Source: Alkanindiges illinoisensis DSM 15370
Lineage (GTDB): Bacteria; Pseudomonadota; Gammaproteobacteria; Pseudomonadales; Moraxellaceae
Length of the DNA: 32,000 nucleotides
Assembly: GCF_000619845.1 (NCBI RefSeq)
Contig: NZ_JHUX01000003.1
Span: 940,064-972,063 of the forward strand
Direction: 5' to 3'
The notes under the pieces were generated by a model. That model had not been told where the DNA came from and searched no databases. It saw only the letters and a list, made by a program, of their open reading frames with translations. Each line of letters opens with the position of its first letter. Within the stretch, counting starts at the first letter, position 1. Both the position numbers and the translations under genes were made by a program. Shown here in pieces: positions 1,600 through 19,425 of this stretch.

Positions 1600-1757
1600 T
1601 TTATAGTCAATCATATTTAAAATCCCTTAACTCCCCCCTCTCAAGGGGGACTTGCCATAAATTCTATGATTTTATTAGAATTTTGATGCTTCTCCCTTTT
1701 TAAAGAGAGTGTAGCGTTGATACAGCAGGAAGGGATTTAAAGTTAAGGATAAATAAA

Positions 1758-3050
1758 GTGAATATTCTGATTTTAGGCGGTGGTGGACGTGAACATGCTC
1801 TGGCATGGAAATGTGCGCAGGATGAGCGTGTTAGCAAGATTTTTATTGCGCCGGGCAATGCTGGAACCGCATTTGAAAATAAATGCAAAAACGTAGATTT
1901 AAATATTCTGGATAATGCGGCTATTGTTGAGTTTGCTAAAACCAGCAAGGTTGATCTGATTATTGTTGGCCCGGAAGCGCCACTAGTCAATGGCGTGGTA
2001 GATGCCTGCCGTGCAGCAAATTTAAAAATCTGGGGACCAACCCAGTATGCCGCACAACTCGAAGGCTCCAAAGCCTTTGCCAAGCATTTCTTAAAGCGCC
2101 ACAATATTCCTACCGCATTTTATGATGTGTTTACCGAAGTAGAGGCTGCCAAGGCTTTCATTCAAAAAAATGGTGCGCCCATTGTCATTAAGGCGGATGG
2201 TCTGGCTGCCGGTAAAGGCGTGATTGTTGCAATGACCGAACAGGAAGCCTTCGACGCAGTTGATGACATGCTGGCAGGCAACAAGTTCGGCGACGCAGGT
2301 TCCCGTGTAGTGATTGAGCAGTTTCTGGACGGTGAAGAAGCCAGCTTTATCTGCATGATTGATGGCAACAATATTTTGCCAATGGCCACCAGTCAGGATC
2401 ACAAGCGTATTTTTGAACAGGATCAAGGGCCAAACACTGGTGGTATGGGTGCGTATTCCCCAGCGCCTGTGGTTACACCAGATGTGTTTGAACGGGTAAT
2501 GACCCAAGTGATGCGGCCAACCGTGGATGGCATGGCAGCAGATGGCCATGTTTACACCGGCTTTTTATATGCCGGCCTGATGATTGACGAGCAAGGCCAG
2601 CCGCGTGTGATTGAGTTTAACTGCCGTTTTGGTGATCCCGAAACCCAGCCGATCATGATGCGCTTGCAATCATCTTTGGTAGAGCTGGTGGAAGCTGGTA
2701 TTGCCGGTAATTTGCCAAAAGACGCCCAGTGGGATGAACGCCGTGCCTTAGGGATTGTGCTGGCAGCCAAAGGCTATCCCGGCGATATCCAAACTAACGA
2801 TATCATTGCTGGTCTGGATCAGTCACCTGAAGATACCAAGATCTTCCATGCGGGTACCAAACTTAGCGAAGATGGTCATGTGCTCACCAGCGGTGGCCGT
2901 GTACTGTGTGTGACTGCACTGGGCGATAATGTATTGGAAGCACAGATTGCCGCGCTGGAAGTGTGTGGACAGGTCACTTTTGATGGTATGCAGTATCGTA
3001 GTGATATTGGTTATCGTGCGATTGAGCGTGAACAAAATGCCAGCGCTTAA
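1758..3050 (+). CDS. purD: phosphoribosylamine-glycine ligase (GAR synthetase)
   Basis: 430-aa ORF with a GTG start and AAGGA 8 nt upstream. ATP-grasp GARS signatures are present: ILILGGGGREHALAWK, GPNTGGMGAYSP and EFNCRFGDPE. Confidence 0.96.
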   Translation: MNILILGGGGREHALAWKCAQDERVSKIFIAPGNAGTAFENKCKNVDLNILDNAAIVEFAKTSKVDLIIVGPEAPLVNGVVDACRAANLKIWGPTQYAAQLEGSKAFAKHFLKRHNIPTAFYDVFTEVEAAKAFIQKNGAPIVIKADGLAAGKGVIVAMTEQEAFDAVDDMLAGNKFGDAGSRVVIEQFLDGEEASFICMIDGNNILPMATSQDHKRIFEQDQGPNTGGMGAYSPAPVVTPDVFERVMTQVMRPTVDGMAADGHVYTGFLYAGLMIDEQGQPRVIEFNCRFGDPETQPIMMRLQSSLVELVEAGIAGNLPKDAQWDERRALGIVLAAKGYPGDIQTNDIIAGLDQSPEDTKIFHAGTKLSEDGHVLTSGGRVLCVTALGDNVLEAQIAALEVCGQVTFDGMQYRSDIGYRAIEREQNASA

Positions 3051-3119
3051 TGCAAATAAGTCTTAAAATATAAAGTCGTAGACTGCCAATTTTGACTTAA
3101 ACTTTTGTTACAATAGTAC

Positions 3120-3159
3120 AACCGCTTTTGACTTACCGTGTTAAAAGCGGTTTCTTTTT
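3120..3159 (+). terminator. rho-independent terminator after purD
   Basis: Perfect 10-bp stem aaccgctttt (3120-3129) / aaaagcggtt (3143-3152), followed by tcttttt. Confidence 0.8.
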
Positions 3160-3321
3160 GCCGTGCTGTTATTGCAAAAAATGGTTAAATCAATTACTTG
3201 AAAACACCAAAGCGCTTTAACAGACACTGATTTGTTACTGAAGGGTTCTGCTTCTTTCACTAAAATAACAAGTCTTTGAAATGAGCACTACATCCCATTT
3301 TAGTTTGAGGATAACGCAAAT

Positions 3322-4695
3322 ATGTCTGATCGTTCAGATAAACTTGACCAGCTAAAAACGTCTGCTTTTGATCGCCGTTTTTCAATTGCCAAAGCCTCGT
3401 TTGTTGCTGGAACCCGCTGGGCGACTGCCAATGCCAGCAGCATGTTTGCCAATGAAGAAACCAAAAGTAAAAAACGCAAACAAGCCATGAGCGAACAAGC
3501 CAATTATCTGGTACAGGAAATTGGCAAGCTCAAAGGTTCGATTGTTAAAATTGGCCAGATGATGGCTCTGTACGGTGAGCATTTCTTGCCAGAAGAAATT
3601 ACAGAAGCGCTGCATACCTTAAATAATAATACCGTTGCCCTATCCTGGCCTGCTATCAAGACGCAGTTGCGCCATGAACTGGGTGTCAAGCTGGATGACT
3701 TAACCATTGACCATGAACCATTAGGCACTGCCTCACTGGCACAAGTACATCGTGCTATTCGCAAATCTGATGGGCTTGAAGTAGTACTAAAAATTCAATA
3801 TCCCGGTGTGGCGGAAGCTATTGATTCAGACATGAGCCTGTTTCGCAATATGCTCAAGCTCACCCGCATGGTGCCGCAAACCCGTGAGTTTGACGAGTGG
3901 TTTGAAGAAGTGCGCGAGATGATGCACCGCGAAGTCAACTATCACATGGAAGCAGATACCACCCGGCGTTTTTATGAGCGTCTAAAAGATGACGGCCGTT
4001 ATATTGTTCCGCAGATTATTGATGAATACTGCACTGACCGTGTGCTGTGCATGACCTTTGAACGTGGCGTACCTGTCAACAGTCCTGTGATGTTGTCCTT
4101 GCCGCAAGCACGTCGTGACAAGCTGGGTGAAGCATCCCTTGAAGTGACCATTCGTGAAATCTTTGAATGGGGCGAAATGCAAACCGACCCCAACTTTGGC
4201 AATTATCTGGTTCGTCTGGGTAATGGTAAGGAGATTGAAGACAAGATTGTGCTGCTGGATTTTGGGGCTATTCGCCAGTTTGACCAGAATTTATTAAATG
4301 TGGCACGCGGCTTGATCGTGGCAGGTTATCACCATGATCTGAATAAAATGGTTGATGCCATGCAGGGTTACAGTTTCTTTGACCAGATGCCAGCCAGCGT
4401 TAAACCCGGTATGGCCAAAGTATTTCTGCTGGCGACAGAAAGCTTTAGTTCACTCCAAAACAACCCTGACCTTCCGCCGGGTATTATGGATGCCGATGGC
4501 AAATATAACTGGCGTAAGAGCCAGTTGCATGCCCGTGTGATCAAGCAGGCTGGAGAATCCATGGCTTCACGCTATTTTAGTGTGCCGCCCAAGGAGTTCA
4601 TGTTTATTAGTCGCAAATTTATTGGTGCCTATACCTTTATGACGGTAATTGATGCGCATACCAACATGCGCAAAATGCTGGAAGCGCATTTATAA
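3322..4695 (+). CDS. ABC1/UbiB-family atypical protein kinase (short, soluble type)
   Basis: 457-aa ORF with ABC1 motifs: VKIGQMMAL (KxGQ), the Ala-rich loop LGTASLAQVHRA followed by VVLKIQYPGV, MQTDPNFGNYLV, and LLDFG. Confidence 0.85.
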   Translation: MSDRSDKLDQLKTSAFDRRFSIAKASFVAGTRWATANASSMFANEETKSKKRKQAMSEQANYLVQEIGKLKGSIVKIGQMMALYGEHFLPEEITEALHTLNNNTVALSWPAIKTQLRHELGVKLDDLTIDHEPLGTASLAQVHRAIRKSDGLEVVLKIQYPGVAEAIDSDMSLFRNMLKLTRMVPQTREFDEWFEEVREMMHREVNYHMEADTTRRFYERLKDDGRYIVPQIIDEYCTDRVLCMTFERGVPVNSPVMLSLPQARRDKLGEASLEVTIREIFEWGEMQTDPNFGNYLVRLGNGKEIEDKIVLLDFGAIRQFDQNLLNVARGLIVAGYHHDLNKMVDAMQGYSFFDQMPASVKPGMAKVFLLATESFSSLQNNPDLPPGIMDADGKYNWRKSQLHARVIKQAGESMASRYFSVPPKEFMFISRKFIGAYTFMTVIDAHTNMRKMLEAHL

Positions 4696-4711
4696 GCTTT
4701 TGAATATTTAT

Positions 4712-4747
4712 AAAAAAACCGCACATTAACTGCGGTTTTTTATTTTT
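4712..4747. terminator. bidirectional terminator between convergent genes
   Basis: Stem aaaaaaaccgca (4712-4723) / tgcggttttttt (4731-4742) around a 7-nt loop, with an A-run upstream and a T-run downstream. It lies between the stops at 4695 (+) and 4784 (-). Confidence 0.8.
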
Positions 4748-4783
4748 CCTAAGGCTTAAATTTTTTCAAAGCCACTGAAAAAT

Positions 4784-6313
4784 TTATACTTTGGCCAGCA
4801 ATCGCTTGATCGGATTTAGCCGTGGCAGTTTTTTCTCACTGGTGTATCTGGCAGGATCAAAACTACGGGTTTTTAGCCAGTACATAAAAGTAAAGCTGGG
4901 CCATAAAGTGGTATTGCGTCCGGTTTCATCCAAGTACCAGCTATTACAACCGGATTTCCAGACCGATTTATCGCTTTGCTTTTGCATATCCTGCACAAAT
5001 TCATCTTCAGCCTCCTGCTTGACTTCCAGCGTATTGAGCTTGTGCTTTTTCATGTACTTTAAAGCCTGCGCAATATAGCTGGCCTGCGATTCAATCATAA
5101 AAATAATTGAGTTATGGCCAAGACCAGTGTTTGGCCCTAACAGGAAAAACGCATTGGGGAAGTCATAGCTGCTAATGCCCAAGTACGCATGCATGCCATT
5201 TTTCCAGTGGGTTTGAATGCTTTTGCCATGCTTGCCAGTAATATCAAACTGGTTGGCCTGATTGGTTACATCAAAACCGGTGCAGTAAATAATCACATCA
5301 ACCGGGTAATCCTGACCATTTGCCATTACACTGTTTTCACTAATTTCAGTTACCCCGCCACCCACCAGATGCACATTGTCCTGATTAAAGGCTGGATAAT
5401 AGCTGTTGGACAGCAGCACGCGTTTACAGCCCATGGTGTAGTTAGGCGTTAATGCTGCACGGGTCTTTTCATCTTTGACCCGTTGCAGGTTTTTATAGGC
5501 TAGCTTCTGGCCATATTTCATGATGCGTGGATCAATCACAAAACCGGCGGCGCTGGCTTCCAGAATCCAGTAAATCTTGTTGCGATACCACTTGCGCGCC
5601 AGCAGGCTTTTTTCATATTTGTCCTTGGTTTCTTCCTTGAAGGCAAAATCTGCCTTGGGCAATACCCAAGCTGGCGTGCGCTGGAATACATACAGTTCGC
5701 TGGCTACTTTGGCCATTTCCGGCACCACCTGAATTGCACTTGCCCCTGTCCCAATCACAGCAATACGCTTGCCCTGTAAATCAACCGAATGATCCCATTT
5801 GGCAGAGTGCATGGTTACACCTTTAAAGTCATGCAGGCCCTTGATATTGGGATAAGATGGAATATGCAAGGCACCACGCGCTGATACCACGGCACGCGCA
5901 CGGAATTGCTGACCACTGGCAGTATCTACCTGCCATGTGCAGTTATCATCGTTATAATGCGCACCGGTGACTTCAACATTAAAGCGGATATGCGGATACA
6001 ACTGATATTTTTGTGCTACATTTTTGGTGTAATCAAAAATCTCCGGCTGTGCAGCAAACGAGCGTGACCAGCGGTTTGGCTCAAAGGAATAGCAATACAT
6101 ATGGGAAGGCACATCGCAGGCTGCACCCGGATACACGTTATCACGCCATGTCCCGCCCACATCATTGCCTTTTTCCAGAATAATAAAATCAACACCTGCC
6201 TTTTGCAGGGCAATGGCCATTGCCATTCCACTAAAACCAGCGCCGACTATTAATACAGAAGCGTCTAGTCCGGTGGTGCTATTGGCTAAAACTTGGGTCG
6301 CAGGCTGACTCAT
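4784..6313 (-). CDS. flavin-dependent Baeyer-Villiger-type monooxygenase (EthA/AlmA-like class B FMO)
   Basis: FAD GxGxxG motif (VLIVGAGFSGMAMA), the exact BVMO fingerprint FxGxxxHxxxW[PD] (FKGVTMHSAKWD), and a second Rossmann motif (IAVIGTGASAIQ). I trimmed the start from the ORF-track position 6442 to the ATG at 6313, which has AGGA 7 nt upstream. The extra 43 N-terminal residues look non-native. Confidence 0.85.
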   Translation of the reverse strand: MSQPATQVLANSTTGLDASVLIVGAGFSGMAMAIALQKAGVDFIILEKGNDVGGTWRDNVYPGAACDVPSHMYCYSFEPNRWSRSFAAQPEIFDYTKNVAQKYQLYPHIRFNVEVTGAHYNDDNCTWQVDTASGQQFRARAVVSARGALHIPSYPNIKGLHDFKGVTMHSAKWDHSVDLQGKRIAVIGTGASAIQVVPEMAKVASELYVFQRTPAWVLPKADFAFKEETKDKYEKSLLARKWYRNKIYWILEASAAGFVIDPRIMKYGQKLAYKNLQRVKDEKTRAALTPNYTMGCKRVLLSNSYYPAFNQDNVHLVGGGVTEISENSVMANGQDYPVDVIIYCTGFDVTNQANQFDITGKHGKSIQTHWKNGMHAYLGISSYDFPNAFFLLGPNTGLGHNSIIFMIESQASYIAQALKYMKKHKLNTLEVKQEAEDEFVQDMQKQSDKSVWKSGCNSWYLDETGRNTTLWPSFTFMYWLKTRSFDPARYTSEKKLPRLNPIKRLLAKV

Positions 6314-9272: not shown

Positions 9273-10298
9273 TCAATTTTCGCCATAGCCTTCCGGATTA
9301 TTTTCCTGCCAGCGCCAGGCATCCTTTAGCATGTCTTCCAGCGTATGTTCAGCTTGCCAGTCCAAGCCCTGTTGGGCCTTGGACGGGTCTGCCCAGAATG
9401 CAGTCAAATCTCCTACCCGCCTTGGCGCAACAGTATACGGTACTGCCTTAGCCGTTACATTCTCAAAAGTCTCTACAATTTCCTTTACCGATATGCCACG
9501 CCCTGTACCCAGATTGTAAATGTGTACCTGTCCATCCTGTTGCCTGACTGAAGCCTGCAATGCCTTCACATGCCCCTTCGCCAAATCCACCACATGCAGA
9601 TAATCCCGAATGCATGTACCATCTGGCGTGGGATAGTCACCCCCAAATATTGACAGTTGGGCACGCTTACCCACCGCAACCTGAGTCACAAAAGGCAATA
9701 GATTATTGGGAATTCCCTTAGGGTCTTCACCAATCAAGCCTGAACAATGCGCACCAATCGGATTAAAATAGCGCAATAAAGTCACAGTAAAATTGTTTAC
9801 TGCTGCACTTGTACTGGACAGTATTTGCTCAACCATGATTTTGCTTTGTCCATAAGGATTAGATGCCGTGCCCAAAGGCATCGTTTCCTGATAAGGGACT
9901 GGCGCTTCTGGCCCATACACGGTTGCGGAAGAGCTAAATACAAAATGCGGAACATGGGCAGCTACAGCCGCCTTAATCAGGCAAAGAGAACCGGTCACAT
10001 TATTATCAAAATATTCCAGTGGTTTTTCGGCGCTTTCTCCCACAGCCTTTAACCCTGCAAAATGGATAATTCCATCAATATGATAATTGGCAAATATTTT
10101 TTTCAGTAATGCTTTATCCCTGATATCTCCTTCAATAAATTCAACCGTTTTATGCGTAATATGTGCAATCCGTTCAAACGCCTTTCTGGAACTATTGACC
10201 AGATTATCCAGTGCAATGACGGTATAGCCTGCGTTCAATAACTCTACAATCGTATGTGATCCAATATAACCTGCACCACCAGTAACCAAAATATTCAT
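9273..10298 (-). CDS. galE: UDP-glucose 4-epimerase
   Basis: 341-aa ORF with NILVTGGAGYIGSH (GxxGxxG) and the catalytic YGQSK (YxxxK). It looks collinear with GalE-type short-chain dehydrogenases. Confidence 0.93.
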   Translation of the reverse strand: MNILVTGGAGYIGSHTIVELLNAGYTVIALDNLVNSSRKAFERIAHITHKTVEFIEGDIRDKALLKKIFANYHIDGIIHFAGLKAVGESAEKPLEYFDNNVTGSLCLIKAAVAAHVPHFVFSSSATVYGPEAPVPYQETMPLGTASNPYGQSKIMVEQILSSTSAAVNNFTVTLLRYFNPIGAHCSGLIGEDPKGIPNNLLPFVTQVAVGKRAQLSIFGGDYPTPDGTCIRDYLHVVDLAKGHVKALQASVRQQDGQVHIYNLGTGRGISVKEIVETFENVTAKAVPYTVAPRRVGDLTAFWADPSKAQQGLDWQAEHTLEDMLKDAWRWQENNPEGYGEN

Positions 10299-10394
10299 GC
10301 TTTAAATTTAACCTGCTTACCTTAAAAGGCTTTAATATTCTTTAGTAAATGTATCGCCAATCATAGCCTGATTAACTTTAAACCCCACCATTTT

Positions 10395-11390
10395 TTATAT
10401 AGGTTTCTTAATGATTAGTGCCTGAATTTCCAATCTTTTTTGGGCAGTTTCAGGAAAAGAAAAACTTTCAAAACGGCTTGATTCTGTTTCGACCTGTTCA
10501 GTAGCGGCAAGACTGATAAACAGCTGATTAGATTGATGGACCAAGCAATTTCCAGTTATAGGCACCATAAACAGCAATAATGCTTTATCCTGCGATACAT
10601 ACCTGGTCGTCAGGTCTTTCACCACTGGTTGATCAGAATTGATATAGAGCGAACCTACTGTCTTTGCTGCATTATAGGCAATACCTACGATTGAGATATT
10701 AGGCTTGATTGGTATGCTAATCTGATCGTTACTCTCCAGACAGGCAAATTCACACTGAAGCATCGAAGTTTTTCTATGAATAGTTTTACGGCTATAAAAC
10801 GCCAGGTCAATTACCTCGTAATGATATTTATAGACAGGCGTCAAGGGTTTAATATCTCTTTTTTCATTTAATATTTCAGCGATTTTTAAACCTAATTCGC
10901 AAGCAATCGGTTTTTGAATATGAAAATCAGCTATAAAACAATCAGCTATGGTTATATTGTTTTGTTTGGCGTATTGCTGAATATATTCAAATCCACTTAA
11001 TATAGGGATATTTAACTCATTGGCAATTTTTTTATAAATCAGACCAGAGATAGTTTCTTTATCAAAAGCTTTGCGTGATGGCATAATAAATAAAAAAGGC
11101 AGGCATCCTTTTTCTAATGCACGTGCTATCCCGTATTCAATGAATTCTCTGATTTGTTTTTTAGTAATTGAACCATATTTATAATAATTACGATCATTTA
11201 TCGCTGTTTCCAGGATGAGCCAGTCAAACTGGAAAAAATCAATCTGACTGGCAAAATAAGGAATAATAATGGATGGCGAAGCACCAATACTATTTCTGGC
11301 TACATGAGAAATATAAGGACTTTGTTCAAGGCCACCAGCGTAACCATCCTTATAAATAGAATTGGAAGTGCCAATTAAACAAATATTCAT
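10395..11390 (-). CDS. hypothetical protein; possible degenerate SGNH/GDSL-like esterase or acyltransferase domain plus an unknown C-terminal domain
   Basis: 331-aa ORF. Block-I-like ICLIGTSNS, block-III-like ETAINDRN, and ADFH where block V is normally DxxH. Residues from about 190 to 331 have no motif I recognise. The start lies 9 nt after the pyruvyltransferase stop. Confidence 0.35.
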   Translation of the reverse strand: MNICLIGTSNSIYKDGYAGGLEQSPYISHVARNSIGASPSIIIPYFASQIDFFQFDWLILETAINDRNYYKYGSITKKQIREFIEYGIARALEKGCLPFLFIMPSRKAFDKETISGLIYKKIANELNIPILSGFEYIQQYAKQNNITIADCFIADFHIQKPIACELGLKIAEILNEKRDIKPLTPVYKYHYEVIDLAFYSRKTIHRKTSMLQCEFACLESNDQISIPIKPNISIVGIAYNAAKTVGSLYINSDQPVVKDLTTRYVSQDKALLLFMVPITGNCLVHQSNQLFISLAATEQVETESSRFESFSFPETAQKRLEIQALIIKKPI

Positions 11391-11399
11391 GTAAATTAC

Positions 11400-12494
11400 T
11401 TAGAGTGCGGCAGTATTATGAATACAGAGAATTTTTGCCACTTTGTCGGCCACCTTTCTTTTTTCAGCCACTCTTAAATAGTCCGATAATATGATTTGAT
11501 CATCATTAGTAGTGAAAAGCCTGGGGCTTGCTATAAGCGGCTTGAATGGAGAACCTAAGGCTAGCACCATTCCATGTTTGGCGTCATAGAATCTGGAGTT
11601 GGTAGAATAATAACCCGTAGCACCACATCTGGCTGCTAACAAATGGGGATGAAATCTGCCAGTGATCATAAAATCTCCCTGCTGTACGGGTAAGCCCATG
11701 TTTAATAACATATGATTGCTCCAGCGTATGATGTTGGGAAATTGCTCAAGCAAAGTTTTATAGACCAGATTATCCTTATGGCTACAGGTCCAGAAGGTAA
11801 CCTGATCAAATTCCTGAAAAAAATCTCTGGTAATCTGGGGTGATTGGCCGGTTACTGAGGCTTCAGTGAAACCGGATAAATGCAGCCAGCGGCCGGTATG
11901 CGACTTTGTATTTACCGGATATAAGAAAGCATCATCCAGCCCTGCAACCAGCATTGAGCAGGAATTTCCTACAATAGTTTGCAGGTCATTGATACTTTGC
12001 TCATCGCGACATTCAAAAAAGTCAAAACCCTGAATAATATTTTTCCATGCCAATTTGTCATGTTGGTCCATAGACTTGAACGGTGAAATTCCCATACCTG
12101 TAGCAACAACGGGAACATCCAGTAATTGTCCAAGCCGGACAACAGTAGAGAGTAACCGTGTGGCATTTACCCAGTTGGCAGAAGTATAGCCACCACCTAG
12201 AAAATGAAAGCCGGTAACTTTATCGAATTCTACTACCGTGGACTCTGCATACTGAGTTCCCAATCGATAAAAATCACTATAGCTGCTGCCTTCATTTTGG
12301 GAGTGACGGGGAATACGGCTGACAAAATGGACATTATCGAATTCTTTAAGCAATCTCGCTGTTGCCTCGTGGCCTTTACCATCTACAGTAATTGGGCCGT
12401 CATAGCCTGCTTCCCGATAGTAACGTAACCAGTACAGCACCAATAGCTCATCACCAAAATTTGGTGCACCATTTCCAGCTAATAAATACAACAT
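11400..12494 (-). CDS. polysaccharide pyruvyltransferase family protein (CsaB/WcaK-like)
   Basis: 364-aa ORF. N-terminal GNGAPNFGDELL (the family's G-x-N-x-GD-E motif) and C-terminal ITGRFHPHLLAARCG (R-x-H ... A). Translationally coupled to the upstream gene: GGGAGAG-TAA-TA-ATG. Confidence 0.75.
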   Translation of the reverse strand: MLYLLAGNGAPNFGDELLVLYWLRYYREAGYDGPITVDGKGHEATARLLKEFDNVHFVSRIPRHSQNEGSSYSDFYRLGTQYAESTVVEFDKVTGFHFLGGGYTSANWVNATRLLSTVVRLGQLLDVPVVATGMGISPFKSMDQHDKLAWKNIIQGFDFFECRDEQSINDLQTIVGNSCSMLVAGLDDAFLYPVNTKSHTGRWLHLSGFTEASVTGQSPQITRDFFQEFDQVTFWTCSHKDNLVYKTLLEQFPNIIRWSNHMLLNMGLPVQQGDFMITGRFHPHLLAARCGATGYYSTNSRFYDAKHGMVLALGSPFKPLIASPRLFTTNDDQIILSDYLRVAEKRKVADKVAKILCIHNTAAL

Positions 12495-12496
12495 TA

Positions 12497-13561
12497 TTAC
12501 TCTCCCGCTTTAAATATTTTATTTTCATGAATACTGTTGTTGGAATTAACAGTCGGATTATTGGTTTTAATGGCATTTATTAACGACGCATTATGTATTT
12601 TATTATTTTTAATAATATTAAACTGTGCATGATCGAGATTACTTAAACTGCTACCAAAGGTATAAGTAGTTTTTCCACTCGCCTGGTCCGCTTTACACCA
12701 GCTTGAATGTCCATCTCTGGAGCCAACATATACTGCTGGTTTATTTGAAATACCGGTGTCATAGTAAAAATCATTGGCAATAATCTGATTATAACTTGGC
12801 ATGGTATGCCTTATTTGCTGCCGCTCCCCACAGTTTCTATACAAATAAATTCCACCTTTGGTTCCTACATGATAAAACTTATTATTGGTAATAGTATTTT
12901 TTTCAGAACCATCTATTGCAATTAATTCCCTGCCCGTGTCCAGCTTAAATATATTACCTTGAATCACATTATTGATGGATTCGGCATCCAGATAAACTGC
13001 GGCGCTTTTGGCTTTGCCACTAATCATTGAATCGATTAACTGGACATGATTAACACCAGGAAATACATATAAAGGCGTTGCTCCTTTAGACTGTATATTT
13101 AGATTTTTCAGTGTAATATTACTGGGTGCTATGCTACGAATCATACTGACATAGTCCTGCTGTCTGGATGCTTTCACAATTTCATCACTTGAAAGCCCAT
13201 TTCGTATGCTGATACTCCCCAAAACCGTACAACCCTGAATGGTAATATTTTCAGGTTTACTGTAGTTAATATTGCCTGTCGCCGGATCAATTACTTTTTC
13301 GCTTTTTATTTGCACATCAGAAATTTGTGCTGAATTACAGTTAATAGTTGTTCCACTGGCACCTGAACCTTTGATAACGATCTTTTTGCTAACTATTTGA
13401 CCCTTGTTTAAGGTAAGATCACAGTCAACAGCTACATCCTGTTTTAGCGGATGGGTGCTCGATAAAATGTTAGCCAGTTTGGCAGCGCTACACACCTGTG
13501 CAAAAGCCTCATGGCTTAAAGTCAATAAAATAACAGCCGTTATTAATTTACCAGAATACAT
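12497..13561 (-). CDS. secreted right-handed parallel beta-helix repeat protein (polysaccharide lyase, hydrolase or epimerase-like)
   Basis: 354-aa ORF with the signal peptide MYSGKLITAVILLTLSHEAFA/QV. Repeated beta-helix rungs of about 22-25 aa rich in I/V-x-G/N (ITIQGCTVLGSISIRNG, ITLKNLNIQSKG, VIQGNIFKL, NTITNNKFYH, IIKNNKIHN). AGGTGA lies 7 nt upstream of the ATG. Confidence 0.7.
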   Translation of the reverse strand: MYSGKLITAVILLTLSHEAFAQVCSAAKLANILSSTHPLKQDVAVDCDLTLNKGQIVSKKIVIKGSGASGTTINCNSAQISDVQIKSEKVIDPATGNINYSKPENITIQGCTVLGSISIRNGLSSDEIVKASRQQDYVSMIRSIAPSNITLKNLNIQSKGATPLYVFPGVNHVQLIDSMISGKAKSAAVYLDAESINNVIQGNIFKLDTGRELIAIDGSEKNTITNNKFYHVGTKGGIYLYRNCGERQQIRHTMPSYNQIIANDFYYDTGISNKPAVYVGSRDGHSSWCKADQASGKTTYTFGSSLSNLDHAQFNIIKNNKIHNASLINAIKTNNPTVNSNNSIHENKIFKAGE

Positions 13562-13581
13562 CTTGTACTCACCTGAAAAGT

Positions 13582-13608
13582 GATAAGTAGTGGATCAAAC
13601 TACTTATC
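13582..13608 (-). promoter_or_regulatory. intercistronic hairpin between the GT fusion gene and the beta-helix gene
   Basis: Perfect 10-bp inverted repeat gataagtagt (13582-13591) / actacttatc (13599-13608) with a 7-nt loop, inside the 87-nt gap. On the transcribed strand it is followed by acTTTT. Confidence 0.5.
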
Positions 13609-13648
13609 TTTAATTTAATGCTTAAAATGCCCTATTTATCTGTCGAAT

Positions 13649-16099
13649 TTATTTTCTTAAGGTTCCTAAAAATACCTGTTTTAAGATTGGCGCACCGAAT
13701 ACATGTGAATCGGCAAAAAATGCTTCCGGATTGCTTAATAATTTATATTGTTTTTTTTCAGGCAAGGTGCTCATGAACAACCGATGCATTAGCATAAGCT
13801 GCTTATCCTGAATCATCTTGTTGGAAGATTTATTATGCGATTTAGCAGATGCAGCAGGCTTTTTTTGTCCTTCTACTGGTGGTTTTGTTATAGCCTGATG
13901 TTTGGCAACAGATTGAGTAATAGGTTTTGGAGGTGTTTTAGTCTCTTCAGTAATAGGCTGCGACGTCTCTAACATCATTCTTGAGCGCCAGCCCAGATAG
14001 CTTTTTTCTGAAAACTTGTATCTGGAATTCAGGCCAATATTATATGACCTGCCACGCCAGCAAATACGCTCTACAATAATTTTGTCATAGCCATGCGCTT
14101 TCCGGGATTCAAACTCACGAATGACATCCTCTGCGCTAAACCAGCTATATTTTTCAAAAATCAGCCAGTCAAGCATCTTCAGCACAGCATTCTCGTCAGG
14201 ATGCCACCATGCCTGAAGATTAAGTACATCGATTAGCTCATCAGCTGAAGATATGGCTGTAGCCAATGTACCCCCTAAGCCATAATAAGCATTACCAAAA
14301 TGGTAGACTGGCTTTTGATGCAATAAGGCTAATAAGCCTACCCCTGAGTTATAGGTAACAACCAGATCACAACAATCAATAATGGCATGCACATTATCGC
14401 CTGAGTGAGCCAGAATCACATTGGATGCTGCTTTTAACCACTCTGGATTTTCTTTGCTGAGTGGATGTTGCTTAATCACAAATAGGCAATCTGGTCTGGT
14501 TTCTACCAGTAATTTGATTTGCTGTTCATAACTTTCATAATTGATATAACCCTCAGTAAAGTAGTTGACCGCCATATCATCCCGAAGCTGTAGCGGAATA
14601 AAGACCTTATTTAGGGTACTTGTCCTAAACAGGGTATACTGAAATGACTGCCAGGTCTTAATATACTCATCGCTGGCTTCCAGACTGGCTTCACCAGCAA
14701 TGATATAATCGCGGTATTTTCTGGCCAGCTCCAGATTCACTGGTTGCCGTTCCTGCAAAATTGCATTGGCTTCCCGATAATCAGAATCGCCATAGGCCAC
14801 TTCATCAGCATAATAAATAGTATTGGGCAAGCCACCGCGCTCAATAATCGTTACTTTGGTTCCTGTGCGGCGTGCATATTCAATCAACCCTCTAAACCTT
14901 ACATGACTTTTCATGTAGGGATTAAAGATAAAGATTTCATCAATCTGTGAATTTTCCAGTAAATGATAAGCATTTTTCAGGCTTTCATCATCACCATTGC
15001 TCAGGGTTTTAAGCTTAAAGCCCAGATTGCGTAATGGCAGAAAATAGCCCCAGTGCTTTTTATCACTAAAAATACATAATGCAGTTTTTTCACGCGGAAG
15101 ATAATCAATCTCCAGTATGTTTTCCCGCTTATTCAGATATTGCTGAATAATTTGATTAAAACGATTTCTTTTCCAGTCATTCTCCGCAGTCCAGTATCCC
15201 TGTCCAGCAGGTTTTTCATGATACATATGAAATGCTTTTAATCCCATTGCCTCTGATGGCATGGTAAACACTTCAATAAAACGTCGAAAACCTAAATAAT
15301 CATTGCCTGTCCAAAAAGAATCTTTAAGTGGGCCATAAAAATCCTTATCCATTGAATCACTTTCTGGAATAGTTGATGCAAACAGACCCAAGCGAATAAA
15401 AAATTCAAAATCTTCTGAGCCATGACCCCGAAACGCATCACAGTAACCACCGGCCAGATTAAATAAATCCTTGTGGATAAACATAGCATTACTATAAGGG
15501 GCAACAAACTCAAATTCCTGTCCAAACGCCGTACCTAAAGCTAGCCAGGACAGATCAGCAATAAAATGGTCTTTATCTTCGGCGGTATTTAATGCAAAAA
15601 ACTGTGCTGTTGCTTCTTTGCCAACATGAAATATGGGCATGGTTAGCATTCGGCGTGGGTATCGTGCAATTTCCAGCCGGTTCGCCATATTGGCTAATTT
15701 CAAGAAAATATCCCGGTCATAGACATAGTCAATGTCTGATAACAGTACCAGATCGGTAGGTGCCAACTGAACCGAGATATTTCTGGCTTTTGCCAGCGCA
15801 AAAGTATTCTTATCGTCTACATAGTGGTAGTGTGCCCCTAAAGCCTGACACTTTTCACGAATAATGGTGGCATAAGGTTCTTCTGAACCAAAATCTACAA
15901 TCTGGATATAAGGCTGGGGATTATAGTAGTTGAGTACAAATTCCAGTCGCTCTAGTACCCAAGGATTGATGGCACTGGCACGTATACAAATACAAAAAGC
16001 AATATCTGTGGGGCTGTACTTCTTTTTATCCAGTGAAGTAACAATTTCCAACCCAGAAAGACTAGGAGATTTATAGGTTAACGCTGCCAAATGTGTCAT
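13649..16099 (-). CDS. two-domain glycosyltransferase: N-terminal GT-A (GT2 / beta-4-GalT-like) fused to a KpsC/KpsS-like capsule-biosynthesis (beta-Kdo-transferase-type) domain, with a Lys/Pro-rich tail
   Basis: 816-aa ORF. GT-A part (about aa 30-300): IQIVDFGSEEP, the DxD motif in LLSDIDYVYD, and FRGHGSEDFEFFIRLG, which resembles the GWGGEDxxL motif of the GalT C-terminal region. KpsC/S-like part (about aa 335-700): ERGGLPNTIYYAD, IPLQLRDD, VIKQHPL and VVTYNSGVGLLALLHQKPVYHFGNAYYG. Tail: TKTPPKPITQSVAKHQAITKPPVEGQKKPAASAKSHNK. Confidence 0.75.
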   Translation of the reverse strand: MTHLAALTYKSPSLSGLEIVTSLDKKKYSPTDIAFCICIRASAINPWVLERLEFVLNYYNPQPYIQIVDFGSEEPYATIIREKCQALGAHYHYVDDKNTFALAKARNISVQLAPTDLVLLSDIDYVYDRDIFLKLANMANRLEIARYPRRMLTMPIFHVGKEATAQFFALNTAEDKDHFIADLSWLALGTAFGQEFEFVAPYSNAMFIHKDLFNLAGGYCDAFRGHGSEDFEFFIRLGLFASTIPESDSMDKDFYGPLKDSFWTGNDYLGFRRFIEVFTMPSEAMGLKAFHMYHEKPAGQGYWTAENDWKRNRFNQIIQQYLNKRENILEIDYLPREKTALCIFSDKKHWGYFLPLRNLGFKLKTLSNGDDESLKNAYHLLENSQIDEIFIFNPYMKSHVRFRGLIEYARRTGTKVTIIERGGLPNTIYYADEVAYGDSDYREANAILQERQPVNLELARKYRDYIIAGEASLEASDEYIKTWQSFQYTLFRTSTLNKVFIPLQLRDDMAVNYFTEGYINYESYEQQIKLLVETRPDCLFVIKQHPLSKENPEWLKAASNVILAHSGDNVHAIIDCCDLVVTYNSGVGLLALLHQKPVYHFGNAYYGLGGTLATAISSADELIDVLNLQAWWHPDENAVLKMLDWLIFEKYSWFSAEDVIREFESRKAHGYDKIIVERICWRGRSYNIGLNSRYKFSEKSYLGWRSRMMLETSQPITEETKTPPKPITQSVAKHQAITKPPVEGQKKPAASAKSHNKSSNKMIQDKQLMLMHRLFMSTLPEKKQYKLLSNPEAFFADSHVFGAPILKQVFLGTLRK

Positions 16100-16195
16100 T
16101 AAAAACCACCAACTATTTAATTATTTATATAGAAAGTGTGCGTCGTTTTTATGACAAAACCATTACAAGAAAACAAAAAGAGGCCGTTATAGTCC

Positions 16196-16214
16196 ATCTA
16201 TTAACTTAATAGAT
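16196..16214. promoter_or_regulatory. candidate operator: 9-1-9 perfect palindrome upstream of the glycan cluster
   Basis: atctattaa-c-ttaatagat at 16196-16214, in the AT-rich 182-nt gap upstream of the GT start at 16099. A third copy of the half-site (atctatta) lies at 16234-16241. Confidence 0.4.
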
Positions 16215-16281
16215 ACAGATGTCATTTAGATGAATCTATTATTTTTAATTAGGAATAATTTTATAAGCTAAAAATATCATT

Positions 16282-17046
16282 TTATGAAGTAGCAGGTTTG
16301 AGAGAATATAAAAAATTCATTATATCCCGAAACACCTGTTGATGATCAGCTTCCTGCATCAGCATGTGGCCAGAGTTAGGATAATTTTTGATTTCCTTGA
16401 CTGTTGAACCAGCCTGATCATAAATAATTTTTGCACTTTCCTGATAACAAACATCATCAAGCTCACCTTGCAATACCTGCACAGGACATTCGATACTTGG
16501 CAAGTGCTGGCCTGTTATTTGCGTAAACTTACTCAATTCTTCTAACATCGAAAAATCCAGCTGGGCAAATTCCACCAACTCCTGCTCAATTTGAAAGGCC
16601 GATTTTTGCTCAAACTTTTTATACTCTTCAGCATAACTGATCAGGCGACGCCGTAAATCATCAACCGGACGTTTTTGAATCGGTGAGCATAAGGCTGTCA
16701 CACTGGCTAATGCGTGCTGCTGAGCCAGTCGCAAGGCAAATACACCACCCATCGAATGACCTACAATACTGATTTTTCCATACTGATAACTTTGTAGAAA
16801 CTCTAATGCATTGACAGCATCCTGCCACCACAAGTCAACACTGCTATGCACAATGGCTTCAGCACCTATACCATGTCCATGATAAATTGGTGCACAACAG
16901 GCAAAACCACAATTTTTTAGAAATGTGATGAGCTTTTTTAAATCCTGCGGTGTACCAGTGAAACCATGTAATAGCAAAATGGCATGCGAATCAGCCGGAT
17001 GGCTGGTCGGATGAAAAATCGGCTTGGGGCGTGCAATTTTAAACAT
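16282..17046 (-). CDS. alpha/beta-hydrolase, carboxylesterase-like
   Basis: LLLHGFTG (oxyanion region), the nucleophile elbow VGHSMGG (GxSxG), and a C-terminal GH (NSGHML). I chose the ATG at 17046. The ORF-track start at 17085 is a TTG, and the 13 residues it adds precede MFKIARPKP, which already looks like the protein's N-terminus. Confidence 0.8.
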   Translation of the reverse strand: MFKIARPKPIFHPTSHPADSHAILLLHGFTGTPQDLKKLITFLKNCGFACCAPIYHGHGIGAEAIVHSSVDLWWQDAVNALEFLQSYQYGKISIVGHSMGGVFALRLAQQHALASVTALCSPIQKRPVDDLRRRLISYAEEYKKFEQKSAFQIEQELVEFAQLDFSMLEELSKFTQITGQHLPSIECPVQVLQGELDDVCYQESAKIIYDQAGSTVKEIKNYPNSGHMLMQEADHQQVFRDIMNFLYSLKPATS

Positions 17047-17126
17047 GCGAATATTGAAGTACTGGCAGAGTATCCAGTCTAGCAATACAAGCCTAAGATT
17101 CAGTAACTGTCTGGTTAATCAATGAG

Positions 17127-18063: not shown

Positions 18064-19425
18064 TTAATGAATGAGTTTAGAGCCTGGCTCAGCTTCCTGT
18101 AAAAGCTGCAGGCGTGAATCACTAAACACGTCCATATAAGGGGTCAGAACACGCATAAAACGGTCAAAGTACAGCATTTGCTTCATCAGTAAGGCAAAAT
18201 CGCGCGGGAAGTGAATACCGTGACGCTCACCCACGCCCACCATATCCAGCATGATGGCATTTAAATCGGCCACATCGCCTGACATCACTTTTTGCGGATC
18301 AGCCATCAAGACCCCGGAAAACAGTTTTTCCATATCCTGGGCCAAACGGTCAACATCAACTTTGGTATGGGTCATCCCCATATTCACCATATGCTTGGCC
18401 ATTTCCTGATAATTGGTATGCTGCAAGGCATCCATAAAACCAATGGTTGCGCCCCATACTTCAGGCTTAAGCTGCCCCACGATACCAAAGTCAATAAAAC
18501 CTATGCGGCCATCTTTTAACAGTAATAAATTGCCCGCATGCAAATCAGCATGGAAACTCTTACACATCATCAGGCTGGCAAACCAGGTATTCATGGCACT
18601 AATCAGTACCTGCGCCGGGTCTTTGGCATATTGCTTGACTACTTCCAGATCGGTAAGTGGCAGGCCGTATAAGCGTTGCATGGTGAGCACACGACGAGTA
18701 GAAGCCTGATGATAAACCTTTGGTGCAATGGCTTGCGTGTTCTGGGTAGCGTCCAGAAATTGCTGGAAATCTTCAATATTTTGCGCTTCAGCCACAAAAT
18801 CGACTTCTTTCACCATACGACTACGGATTTCGTCAACAATTTCAGACAGTGAGGCAAACTTGAGCTTTGGCACCACTTTCTCAAACAGTTTGGTCACGCC
18901 ATACACGACATTAAGATCAGTATGCAAAATGGTTTGCACACCCGGTTTTTGCACCTTAATGACTACATCTTCACCAGTAACTAAAGTAGCGGCATGTACC
19001 TGTGCAATCGATGCAGAAGCCAGTGGTGTCTGTTCAATATGCTGAAAAATGCTATTGAGGGGTGTATCGCCAAACTCTTCTTTTAAGGTTTGTTCAATAT
19101 AGCTATAAGGCAAGGCTGGGGTTTGATCCAGACAGCGCTGGAATTCCTCAACATATTCACGTGGAAACAGTGAGGGCGAGCTGGCAATAAACTGCCCCAG
19201 CTTGATATAGGTTGCCCCAAGTTGCTCAAAGGTTTCACGCAGCAATTGTGGCGTTGGTGCGCCATCGGTTGCATGCCGGATACCTGCACGAAGCACCACA
19301 CCAGCAGTTTCGCCAAGACGGGCAACTGAACGTAAGCTATTGAGTAGCTGCTTTTTAGCTGTGGGGTTTTTAATCATGGAAAGTCCTTCAATTTCAGGCA
19401 AAACGCTAATGATTTTTGCCATCAT
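18064..19425 (-). CDS. ABC1/UbiB-family atypical protein kinase (second paralogue)
   Basis: IKLGQFIAS, PLASASIAQVHAA followed by VVIKVQKPGV, FHADLHAGNLLL, and FIDFGIVG. An alternative start at 19377 (ATG with GAAGGA 6 nt upstream) is at least as likely as the ATGATG at 19425. Confidence 0.85.
   Translation of the reverse strand: MMAKIISVLPEIEGLSMIKNPTAKKQLLNSLRSVARLGETAGVVLRAGIRHATDGAPTPQLLRETFEQLGATYIKLGQFIASSPSLFPREYVEEFQRCLDQTPALPYSYIEQTLKEEFGDTPLNSIFQHIEQTPLASASIAQVHAATLVTGEDVVIKVQKPGVQTILHTDLNVVYGVTKLFEKVVPKLKFASLSEIVDEIRSRMVKEVDFVAEAQNIEDFQQFLDATQNTQAIAPKVYHQASTRRVLTMQRLYGLPLTDLEVVKQYAKDPAQVLISAMNTWFASLMMCKSFHADLHAGNLLLLKDGRIGFIDFGIVGQLKPEVWGATIGFMDALQHTNYQEMAKHMVNMGMTHTKVDVDRLAQDMEKLFSGVLMADPQKVMSGDVADLNAIMLDMVGVGERHGIHFPRDFALLMKQMLYFDRFMRVLTPYMDVFSDSRLQLLQEAEPGSKLIH

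Follow-up and report, generated by a model that had tools for sequence, protein, structure and literature searches.

A GT-A domain fused to a single KpsC/KpsS-type module in Alkanindiges illinoisensis, a candidate polymerase for a hexose-Kdo capsule

What is made by a protein that carries two different glycosyltransferase modules in one chain? This question is raised by a gene of the soil bacterium Alkanindiges illinoisensis, which encodes 816 amino acid residues and lies in a stretch of 32,000 nucleotides that was analysed as a whole and is referred to hereafter as the window. Capsules with Kdo are often virulence factors and vaccine antigens, and the enzymes that put Kdo into the repeat unit are only just beginning to be characterised (KrkA, 2026). 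Here, we propose, with a probability of roughly two in three, that this fusion is a bifunctional polysaccharide polymerase of the ABC-transporter-dependent ('group 2-like') capsule type, using a hexose and Kdo. The most likely product is an acidic surface polysaccharide in which the two sugars alternate. A one-protein hexose/Kdo polymerase, if read correctly, would allow better capsule typing and would offer a compact enzyme for the production of defined Kdo copolymers. The design of the enzyme is already known from the Kingella kingae capsule, and the Alkanindiges protein is an ordinary, unstudied member of a fusion family.

Domains, fold and C-terminal tail

The initial annotation, made from the sequence, described an 816-residue open reading frame in which a 'GalT-like' GT-A domain is fused to a single KpsC/KpsS-like domain and a Lys/Pro-rich tail. 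Its coordinates, strand and length are exact, and all the motifs that it quoted are found in the translation. The N-terminal half contains VDFGSEEP (aa 68-75), LLSDIDYV (aa 119-126) and HGSEDFEFFIRLG (aa 226-238). The C-terminal half contains ERGG (aa 420-423), IYYAD (aa 428-432), PLQLRDD (aa 502-508), VIKQHPL (aa 541-547), TYNSGVGLLALL (aa 582-593) and PVYHFGNAYYG (aa 597-607), which are followed by the Lys/Pro-rich stretch (aa 720-757) and by KLLSNPEAFFADSHVFGAPILKQVF (aa 786-810). In a family alignment of 96 sequences, residues D69, G71, S72, D122, D124 and G225-F231 are invariant, as are E420-G422, P502, Q504, D508, K543, H545-L547, N584-G586 and G602. Since the quoted motifs fall on invariant columns, they are far from chance. 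The features are listed in Table 1.

Table 1 Positions of the fusion gene, its modules and motifs, and the genes downstream of it in the window.
Feature	Position	Strand	Basis
Bifunctional glycosyltransferase gene, 816 aa, WP_084494712.1, A. illinoisensis	13649..16099	-	ORF listing, ATG start; identical protein in NCBI; >120 full-length homologues
GT-A glycosyltransferase domain PF10111, aa ~30-330	15110..16012	-	Pfam E=5e-48; Foldseek; profile matches
DxD motif D122-I-D124	15728..15736	-	Invariant in 96 sequences
E229-D230 of GHGSEDF motif	15410..15415	-	Invariant in 96 sequences; weak alignment with GT7 'GWGGEDDD' region
Single KpsC/KpsS-like (GT107/GT99-like) module of retaining beta-Kdo-transferase type, aa ~335-715	13955..15097	-	PF05159, Foldseek, profiles, hhalign
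FNPYMKSH, aa 392-399	14903..14926	-	hhalign opposite KpsC 'PYWQLEDGF', which holds general base Glu66
QxxxD motif Q504-L-R-D-D508	14576..14590	-	Q504, D508 invariant; aligned with QVEDD (WbbB), QVESD (KpsC)
HP motif H545-P546	14462..14467	-	Invariant; aligned with HP of WbbB, KpsC, KpsS
Disordered Lys/Pro/Thr/Ser-rich linker, aa 716-760	13820..13954	-	pLDDT <50 for aa 718-761; composition
C-terminal helical bundle, aa 761-816	13652..13819	-	AF2 model; conserved motif KLxxxPxxFFxDS
Right-handed beta-helix protein, 354 aa, downstream gene	12497..13561	-	AF2 pLDDT 91.6; weak Foldseek matches
Polysaccharide pyruvyl transferase, 364 aa, downstream gene	11400..12494	-	PF04230 E=3.4e-9; weak CsaB match
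331-aa protein, downstream gene	10395..11390	-	No family match
UDP-glucose 4-epimerase GalE, last gene of same-strand run	9273..10298	-	TIGR01179 442 bits vs cut-off 262

Two Pfam families exceed their curated cut-offs in the protein. PF10111 (Glyco_tranf_2_2) matches aa 36-317 over model positions 3-273 of 276, with 164.4 bits against a cut-off of 27.3. PF05159 (Capsule_synth) matches aa 497-610 with 45.9 bits against a cut-off of 20; it covers model positions 146-270 of 310 only, and this match spans just the C-terminal Rossmann half of the Kdo-transferase module. Both matches are significant and the catalytic acidic residues are intact, which supports the claimed fusion of a GT-A domain with a single KpsC/KpsS-type module. 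The findings that had been named in advance as speaking against it, a lack of significant Pfam matches or of catalytic acidic residues in one half, or a C-terminal half modelled as an unrelated Rossmann enzyme such as a CDP-glycerol phosphotransferase, did not come up.

The AF2 model of the protein has a pLDDT of 89.3. The initial annotation had suggested a comparison with KpsC, and the best PDB matches of the model in Foldseek are indeed the KpsC structures 8fuw, 8fux, 6mgc, 6mgd and 6mgb, with E-values from 8e-11 to 8e-9 and target-normalised TM-scores of 0.61-0.69. The C-terminal module has the modified GT-B fold with a helical insert that is seen in KpsC and WbbB. Foldseek also matches WbbB and KrkA, the latter only distantly (rank 37, E=3e-6). 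When profiles were searched against the PDB, the best match was the GT99 module of WbbB from Raoultella terrigena (E=1.2e-6), KpsC was matched at E=1.6e-4, and hhalign aligned the module to KpsS with 97% probability. The PDB search with the single sequence gave no match; only the profile and fold searches did. The NCBIfam model for KpsS equivalogs, NF050054, scored 13.6 bits against a cut-off of 600.

The N-terminal half is matched in Foldseek by the chondroitin polymerase K4CP, PmHS2 and LARGE1, and with the whole model K4CP and PmHS2 rank after the KpsC structures. The family profile of this domain matches LARGE1 and beta4GalT7, the latter (structure 3lw6) only at E=0.012. The resemblance that suggested a 'GalT-like' domain thus exists, but it remains below threshold (Glyco_transf_7C, 13 bits against a cut-off of 23, E=0.08), and the domain is a GT-A of the PF10111/GT2 type.

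Beyond the two modules, the protein ends with a linker, whose sequence and length differ between homologues, and a helical bundle. The model places helices at aa 759-778, 781-789, 791-797 and 803-815, and the block-mean pLDDT rises from 69 (aa 761-770) to 78-91 (aa 771-816). The motif KLxxxPxxFFxDS (aa 786-798, nt 13706-13744) is conserved in the family and is also found at the termini of unrelated capsule polymerases. It was rejected as a general feature of KpsE, being present in just 1 of 28 KpsE ORFs. The tail helices have a modest hydrophobic moment, with a maximum of 0.28, so that membrane insertion is not evident from the sequence and a classical amphipathic helix is unsupported. Our preferred reading is that the tail forms a helical bundle for association with the membrane or with a complex; the basic disordered linker and the bundle would then tether the enzyme to the membrane or export complex. 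The earlier suggestion of an anchoring tail agrees with the disordered linker and helices of the model, and with the tails described for KpsC (PMC10148158) and for the Hib polymerase Bcs3 (PMC10299916).

Catalytic motifs and predicted reactions

In the GT-A domain, D122, D124, E229 and D230 are conserved across the family, which gives it the DxD motif and the downstream acidic residues expected of a metal-dependent inverting GT-A enzyme. From general knowledge of GT-A enzymes, we take D122-I-D124 to be the metal and nucleotide-sugar binding site, and E229-D230 is a candidate for the catalytic base. With a UDP-sugar as donor, the domain would attach a hexose or N-acetylhexosamine in beta linkage to a Kdo acceptor, in a metal-dependent and inverting manner. 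Because galE lies next door and a pyruvyltransferase is encoded in the operon, galactose is the best guess for the hexose.

In the C-terminal module, Q504, D508, H545 and P546 are invariant and align to WbbB, KpsC and KpsS, and the module therefore has the motif set of GT107, GT99 and GT140. Q504 is predicted to be the Gln that binds the Kdo carboxylate and D508 to be the nucleophilic Asp, by comparison with the role of the QxxxD motif in retaining Kdo transferases (PMC10148158, PMC12887879). H545-P546 are predicted to bind CMP and to protonate the leaving group. The module would thus transfer Kdo from CMP-beta-Kdo onto Asp508 to form a covalent intermediate, while His545 would protonate the departing CMP, and Kdo would then be handed, with net retention, to the newly added hexose. 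KpsC and KpsS, the retaining beta-Kdo transferases of CAZy family GT107, build the poly-Kdo linker; the acceptor there is Kdo, while here it is presumably the hexose.

The general base is less clear. The Glu66-Asp67 pair of KpsC ('EDGF') is not conserved in place, and hhalign puts H399-V400 opposite to it. In the alignment of 96 sequences, H399 shows at least 90% conservation and follows an invariant S398, and the invariant residues E420 and E474 stand elsewhere than the aligned base position. Trp42 of KpsC is also absolutely conserved (PMC10148158), and the hhalign match to KpsC begins after this residue. The replacement of the base pair by His399-Val400 at the aligned position suggests that the second half-reaction may differ. 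In KrkA, which works by double displacement with the Asp of QxxxD as the nucleophile, the general base is likewise shifted relative to KpsC and WbbB (PMC12887879).

The absence of a KpsC-type Glu from the aligned place would also suit a module of the same architecture that transfers another CMP-ulosonic acid, such as pseudaminic, legionaminic or sialic acid or Kdn. The matches in NCBIfam point the same way, as they are weak and are to the BFO_1060 and TIGR04396 'surface carbohydrate biosynthesis' models and not to KpsS or KpsC. Relatives of KpsC/KpsS that transfer pseudaminic acid do exist in family GT118, with the KpsS homologue KpsS1 of A. baumannii (PMC12887879). We nevertheless consider such a donor improbable. 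The nearest folds are those of Kdo transferases, and no gene for nonulosonic acid synthesis was seen in the window. None was seen in the annotated relatives either, and their neighbours are the dedicated Kdo-pathway paralogues kpsF, kdsA and kdsB. Moreover, retaining Kdo-type enzymes have been argued to adapt poorly to most nonulosonic acids (PMC12887879). We infer that Kdo is the donor of the C-terminal module.

Homologues and known capsule polymerases

The PF10111+PF05159 fusion family has 354 clusters at 50% identity (E<=1e-30), and more than 120 full-length homologues were found at E<1e-140. Members occur in Bilophila wadsworthia and Acinetobacter, and in E. coli, Citrobacter and Enterobacter they are carried by plasmids or short contigs. 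Their database label, 'capsular polysaccharide export protein, LipB/KpsS family', is misleading. Of 54 genome loci, 34 have kpsM/T/E/D/C/S genes no more than 10 kb from the fusion gene. On a Citrobacter IncX5 plasmid, only the fusion gene and an O-acetyltransferase make up the type-specific region, and in Acinetobacter pecorum this region consists of the fusion gene and one 440-aa ORF that has no Pfam match. Paralogues of kpsF, kdsA and kdsB and an acetyltransferase gene surround the fusion gene in Aeromonas veronii and Pseudomonas putida. The initial annotation had supposed that one polypeptide lays down two different sugars, for example a Kdo-like residue and a hexose, as an alternating polymer or as a primer plus first repeat. 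Relatives of the protein are often the sole glycosyltransferase of a kps type-specific region and often adjoin kdsA, kdsB or kpsF, so the idea of a polymerase for two sugars is well supported, albeit indirectly. An acidic [hexose-Kdo]n chain would arise as the two sites act in turn, and CsaA suggests by analogy that its growth begins on the poly-Kdo glycolipid that KpsS and KpsC produce.

In Kingella kingae, the type a capsule is polymerised by CsaA (Starr et al. 2016). This 811-residue protein has an N-terminal GalNAc-transferase and a C-terminal beta-Kdo-transferase, and its product is [3)-beta-GalNAc-(1-5)-beta-Kdo-(2-] (PMC5070880, PMC9592894). Genetic work has established that CsaA makes the GalNAc-Kdo capsule, and the Alkanindiges protein agrees with it in domain order and almost in size; contrary to what had been thought, the architecture is thus not uncharacterised (PMC5070880, PMC9592894). 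The likeness, by description, extends to a hexosaminyl/hexosyl transferase followed by a beta-Kdo-transferase, to 811 against 816 residues, and, on the reading preferred here, to a single enzyme sufficing for a [sugar-Kdo]n capsule. The capsule genes of K. kingae are scattered (PMC5070880, PMC9592894), csaA is unlinked to the export genes, and these are likewise missing from the window. However, the csa locus lacks the pyruvyltransferase, beta-helix and unknown genes that follow the Alkanindiges fusion. No Kingella protein was found in the scan of genome contigs, among the names of 20 clusters or among the best 120 matches.

The K14 capsule is a GalNAc-Kdo polymer. K14_8 of E. coli, with 761 residues and an N-terminal GT2 domain, is 27% identical to K12_12, which dbCAN puts in GT99, and GT99- or GT107-like domains have been attributed to Kdo-containing K-types including K14 (PMC13171606). 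By description, K14_8 resembles the Alkanindiges fusion. Megablast and blastn searches with the Atlantibacter and Citrobacter fusion genes gave no match in complete E. coli genomes. E. coli K132_13 was rejected as a counterpart; it is a fusion of a GT-B (TagF-like) and a KpsC-like module, although dbCAN assigns GT107 to residues 268-798.

Other known enzymes share parts of this design. KpsC and KpsS have in common with the fusion the fold, the QxxxD and HP motifs, PF05159 and a disordered basic linker followed by C-terminal helices, but KpsC has two tandem modules instead of one module fused to a GT-A domain. KrkA, the polymerase of E. coli K13/K20/K23, combines GT140 with a ribofuranosyltransferase (PMC12887879). 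Its domain order is reversed, with the Kdo-transferase at the N-terminus, and the partner is a ribosyltransferase-phosphatase instead of a GT-A domain. K4CP (KfoC) and the heparosan synthase PmHS2 are dual-site capsule polymerases that follow the same logic of an alternating copolymer, and their GT-A domains best match the N-terminal half. At their second site, however, there is a further glycosyltransferase that uses a UDP-sugar (in K4CP, another GT-A) and not a CMP-Kdo-dependent GT-B-like module.

The fusion might instead stop after a single hexose-Kdo unit. Such a unit could prime the chain or form a transition on the poly-Kdo linker, or it could terminate the chain as in WbbB, and the bulk polymer would be left to other enzymes. 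In WbbB, the GT99 module is joined to other modules and ends the O-antigen with one beta-Kdo (PMC9587256), and transition transferases are part of capsule systems (PMC11666461). In some loci (e.g. L007 and L051) further large polymerase-like ORFs lie near the fusion gene. Sinorhizobium meliloti 1021 carries a homologue on pSymB, where it belongs to the rkp-3 K-antigen region and has rkpZ1 and rkpT1 as neighbours (PMC5429615), and yet the K-antigen of this strain is reported to be a Kdo homopolymer (PMC5539429), which counts against a two-sugar polymerase. On the other hand, CsaA by itself suffices for polymer synthesis (PMC5070880), and the type-specific regions of the Citrobacter plasmid, Acinetobacter, Aeromonas and P. 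putida hold no other glycosyltransferase. A role limited to one unit thus seems quite unlikely to us, and a polymerase is preferred.

The Alkanindiges locus

The fusion gene heads a block of low GC content (0.35-0.43, while the remainder of the window has 0.457), which comprises the fusion, beta-helix, pyruvyltransferase and 331-aa genes and lies between housekeeping genes. Scans for tRNA and Rfam elements found none at the borders of the block, and scans for promoters and terminators gave fewer sites than in shuffled controls. It is uncertain whether galE belongs to the unit. With a GC content of 0.452, it resembles the remainder of the window and not the block, and other loci show no consistent linkage between galE and the fusion gene.

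No kps export, kpsC/kpsS or Kdo-synthesis gene is present in the 32-kb window. In Alkanindiges, the gene could accordingly act outside a Kps-type pathway, on lipooligosaccharide or another glycoconjugate or on an otherwise exported polymer, or it could be the orphan remnant of a horizontally acquired island. This would agree with the low-GC block between housekeeping genes and with the unusual partners (secreted beta-helix, pyruvyltransferase, unknown ORF) that recur at loci L027 and L036, and kps genes are also missing within 10 kb at 20 of the 54 homologue loci. But the ORF is intact with every catalytic motif conserved, a 92%-identical orthologue occurs in metagenomes, and the protein has kept the helical C-terminal tail and the motif typical of Gram-negative capsule polymerases. 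Scattered capsule genes are moreover found in K. kingae (PMC9592894). We regard a function outside the Kps-type pathway as very unlikely, and on the preferred reading of a Kps-type capsule polymerase the kps export genes would lie elsewhere in the A. illinoisensis genome. When an Acinetobacter KpsC was used as the query, all named sequences among the best 120 matches were from Acinetobacter.

A bolder proposal, which we think unlikely, is that the PF10111+PF05159 fusions form a distinct clade of Kdo-polymer synthases with an exchanged or relocated general base, His399 standing in the KpsC Glu position and the invariant Glu420 or Glu474 being alternatives. In Alkanindiges and a few others (L027, L036), these synthases would be coupled to the pyruvyltransferase, the 331-aa protein and a secreted beta-helix enzyme instead of kps, to make a pyruvylated Kdo heteropolysaccharide by an undescribed route, and capsule polymerases that are otherwise unrelated would share KLxxxPxxFFxDS as a signal for docking.

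The three genes that follow the fusion may encode proteins that decorate or trim the polymer. Homologues of all three recur next to fusion genes in distant taxa. Those of the pyruvyltransferase come immediately after the fusion genes in L027 and L036, and one is nearby in L011. The 331-aa protein has no match in Pfam, NCBIfam or the PDB sequences, and a 42%-identical homologue comes after the pyruvyltransferase in L027. The 354-aa beta-helix protein, which has no Pfam match, looks like a secreted protein, as its hydrophobic N-terminus resembles a signal peptide by inspection. Its weak Foldseek matches are to PL6 lyases and to the epimerases AlgG and AlgE4, and beta-helix homologues lie near the fusion genes in loci L015 and L021.

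Family assignment and fold of the fusion protein

The open reading frame proposed in the initial annotation is real. It begins with ATG, encodes 816 residues and corresponds exactly to WP_084494712.1 of Alkanindiges illinoisensis (Moraxellaceae) in NCBI, in which all the motifs quoted in that annotation are found at their expected positions. Databases label this protein 'capsular polysaccharide export protein, LipB/KpsS family' and 'glycosyltransferase'. Both predicted domains score above the Pfam cut-offs: a GT-A domain, PF10111 (Glyco_tranf_2_2), covers residues 36-317 (E=5e-48, 164 bits, cut-off 27.3), and PF05159 (Capsule_synth) covers residues 497-610 (E=6.6e-12, 45.9 bits, cut-off 20). 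The GT-A half had been described as GalT-like; a weak resemblance exists, but the domain is not a member of GT7 (Glyco_transf_7C, 13 bits versus a cut-off of 23). No NCBIfam model fits the protein; that for KpsS requires 600 bits and gives 13.6.

At E<1e-140, more than 120 full-length proteins with both Pfam domains were found, and when 1.84 billion representatives were scanned exhaustively with HMMER, 354 clusters (50% identity) reached E<=1e-30. Named members include Aeromonas veronii, Atlantibacter, Pseudocitrobacter, E. coli, Enterobacter, Rahnella, Acinetobacter, Pseudomonas putida, Bilophila wadsworthia, Shinella, Rhizobium, Sinorhizobium and Luteolibacter. Members of about 980 residues (P0076, P0084, P0087 and P0103) have an additional carbohydrate sulfotransferase domain, PF03567, at the C-terminus, a hint that some Kdo-containing polymers are sulfated; TPR repeats are found in others (P0057, P0059, P0068 and P0108).

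An alignment of 96 full-length homologues, of 33-49% identity except for a single orthologue at 94%, was used for an AlphaFold2 model (mean pLDDT 89.3, pTM 0.84), which is confident except for residues 1-10 and 718-761. The best Foldseek matches of this model in the PDB are KpsC Kdo-transferases (8fuw, the ternary complex 8fux, 6mgc, 6mgd and 6mgb; E 8e-11 to 8e-9; target-normalised TM 0.61-0.69). They are followed by the GT-A polymerases K4CP (2z86, 2z87) and PmHS2, and then by the GT99 module of Raoultella terrigena WbbB, LARGE1 and the GT140 module of KrkA.

Predicted catalytic residues and proposed polymerization

The residues invariant among the 96 sequences in the N-terminal half are D69, G71, S72, D122 and D124 of the DxD motif, H158 and G225-H-G-S-E-D-F231. 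Further invariant residues are F392-N-P-Y-M396, S398, E420-R-G422, L473 and E474 in region 392-474, and P502, Q504, D508, K543, H545-P-L547, N584-S-G586 and G602 in region 502-602. All retaining beta-Kdo transferases share a conserved core, made up of the Gln and Asp of QxxxD plus HP, in which the Asp acts as nucleophile and becomes covalently linked to Kdo (PMC10148158, PMC12887879). A profile of the C-terminal half matched WbbB (E=1.2e-6) and KpsC (E=1.6e-4); in the profile alignments, PLQLxDD of the fusion protein pairs with LQVEDD or GQVESD, and KxHP with RAHP or KPHP. With hhalign, the family matched an Aeromonas KpsS with 97% probability and the KpsC of the same Aeromonas with 91%. The general-base segment of KpsC, PYWQLEDGF (Glu66-Asp67 in E. 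coli), differs: hhalign places it on FNPYMKSHV, and His399-Val400 therefore occupy the place of the Glu-Asp pair. Judging from sequence, the candidates for the general base of the Kdo-transferase module are H399 and two invariant residues, E420 and E474. There is precedent for a relocated base in KrkA (PMC12887879).

Most likely, the fusion protein builds an alternating polymer by itself. Its GT-A site has a DxD and an E-D base region like those of GT2 and GT7 enzymes and is on that ground predicted to be inverting; with a UDP-sugar as donor, it would add a beta-hexose or N-acetylhexosamine to Kdo. The KpsC-like site would then transfer beta-Kdo from CMP-Kdo to the newly added sugar, by double displacement via Asp508. 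The poly-Kdo glycolipid is the probable starting point of the chain, as a terminal beta-Kdo would already be recognised by the GT-A site; the same initiation has been proposed for CsaA, the Kingella kingae type a capsule polymerase (PMC5070880).

By its description, CsaA is the closest system to the fusion protein. It suffices alone for the [3)-beta-GalNAc-(1-5)-beta-Kdo-(2-] capsule, and the capsule genes of K. kingae are scattered (PMC5070880, PMC9592894). E. coli K14_8, of 761 residues, carries a GT2 at its N-terminus and shares 27% identity with K12_12, which is assigned to GT99 (PMC13171606 supplement), and KrkA, the E. coli K13/K20/K23 polymerase, is another single-protein [sugar-Kdo] polymerase, composed of GT140 and a ribosyltransferase (PMC12887879). 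Both the architecture and the logic behind it are therefore already known from CsaA, K14_8 and KrkA, whereas the initial annotation was aware of no characterised example. What is new is limited to a large PF10111+PF05159 family without an identifiable characterised member, the changed position of the base, and the unusual set of linked accessory genes found here.

Capsule loci of the fusion family

Homologues of kpsM/T/E/D/C/S lie within 10 kb of the fusion gene in 34 of the 54 loci from species-representative genomes. The order is kpsM-kpsT-kpsE-kpsD-kpsF-acetyltransferase-FUSION-kdsA-kdsB-x-kpsC-kpsS in Aeromonas veronii, with a similar order in P. putida, and kpsMTED-FUSION-one 440-aa ORF-kpsC-kpsS in Acinetobacter pecorum. 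In Citrobacter freundii, one strand of an IncX5 plasmid carries kpsM-kpsT-FUSION-O-acetyltransferase and the other kpsS-kpsC-kpsD-kpsE. In these four loci, the type-specific region holds no glycosyltransferase besides the fusion protein, which makes a role as primer or terminator, instead of polymerase, unlikely. Extra CMP-Kdo pathway genes accompany the fusion gene in about ten loci. Pse-transferring relatives of KpsS are known, and the C-terminal module might use another ulosonic acid as donor; as the context genes of the family indicate Kdo, we give this little credence.

The Citrobacter plasmid is conjugative and 48 kb in size; short contigs of E. coli and Enterobacter carry close relatives. 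The S. meliloti 1021 homologue is located in the rkp-3 K-antigen region of pSymB, between a hexapeptide acetyltransferase and rkpZ1/rkpT1 (gene names from PMC5429615). The reported K-antigen of this strain is a Kdo homopolymer despite the intact family member; either the product of this gene was missed or the gene is silent.

C-terminal tail and the Alkanindiges neighbourhood

Residues 716-760 are disordered in the model, rich in Lys/Pro/Thr/Ser and not conserved among homologues. Residues 761-816 are helical, with four helices modelled across 759-815. These terminal helices carry a motif conserved in the family, KLxxxPxxFFxDS (residues 786-798), which is also found at the termini of catalytically unrelated capsule polymerases in the loci examined (Caps_synth+TagF-like, GT2, Stealth hexose-phosphate transferase and GT2+TagF-like+TPR) and might target all these proteins to the membrane or to a complex. 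It was also found once in a KpsE N-terminus. Published descriptions of two other tails agree with this linker and helices: KpsC has a disordered basic tether and a C-terminal amphipathic helix (PMC10148158), and Bcs3 ends in a helical bundle, reportedly confined to Gram-negative capsule systems and not needed for catalysis (PMC10299916). The hydrophobic moment of the helices in the fusion protein is modest.

Features of the Alkanindiges window and of loci around fusion-family genes
Feature	Locus	Coordinates	Strand	Remarks
Fusion gene	window	13649-16099	-	WP_084494712.1
Tail motif KLxxxPxxFFxDS	window	13706-13744
Beta-helix protein	window	12497-13561	-	probable signal peptide; no Pfam match; directly downstream of fusion gene
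Polysaccharide pyruvyltransferase	window	11400-12494	-	PF04230
331-aa ORF	window	10395-11390	-	no match in Pfam, NCBIfam, PDB sequences
GalE	window	9273-10298	-	true equivalog, 442 bits, cut-off 262
ABC1/UbiB-type atypical kinase	window	3322-4695	+
ABC1/UbiB-type atypical kinase	window	18064-19425	-
Motif [KR]KLxKLxxxPxxFFxDS	L007	within 1239-6086
Motif [KR]KLxKLxxxPxxFFxDS	L046	within 3886-5475
Motif [KR]KLxKLxxxPxxFFxDS	L049	within 263-2008
Motif [KR]KLxKLxxxPxxFFxDS	L051	within 10202-14569
Motif [KR]KLxKLxxxPxxFFxDS	L056	within 4720-5994
S. meliloti 1021 pSymB region	L061	601729-627735
Fusion match	L061	11872-14214		intact; PF10111 432 bits
C. freundii plasmid pRHBSTW-00985_4	L062	8697-20249		complete eight-gene kps cluster beside IS1

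The fusion gene is the first of a same-strand run of five genes through GalE. The four genes in 10395-16099 have a GC content of 0.35-0.43, lowest in the 331-aa ORF (0.348), compared with 0.457 in the rest of the window; the mean over 9273-17085 is 0.397, and GalE has 0.452. This low GC suggests that a block of about 10395-16099 was horizontally acquired, by insertion between housekeeping genes, those of the folK/folB side and those for acyl-CoA dehydrogenases. Scans for tRNA and Rfam elements found none at its borders. No kps or Kdo-pathway gene is present in the 32-kb window; for a non-capsule or orphan role in Alkanindiges, we see a slim chance.

The accessory genes are not random neighbours, because their homologues recur near fusion genes. 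In Pseudoroseomonas (L027) and a Polyangiales genome (L036), the gene directly after the fusion gene encodes a pyruvyltransferase homologue, and another lies near the fusion gene in Shinella (L011). The Pseudoroseomonas pyruvyltransferase is followed by a homologue of the 331-aa ORF (42% identical), and beta-helix homologues are located near fusion genes in Sinorhizobium sp. (L015) and Rhizobium sp. (L021). The beta-helix protein, modelled as a right-handed beta-helix (pLDDT 91.6), shows a weak likeness to PL6 lyases and to two epimerases, AlgG and AlgE4 (Foldseek, TM at most 0.46); we interpret it as an enzyme that is secreted and acts on an acidic polysaccharide. Its relatives are common in Neisseria, Wielerella and Sinorhizobium. 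In the adjacent GalE, Phe (GDLTAFWAD) occupies the position of Tyr299 in E. coli GalE. Because of this Phe and the pyruvyltransferase, our tentative guess for the hexose is galactose. The two kinase genes that flank the region are paralogues, 26% identical.
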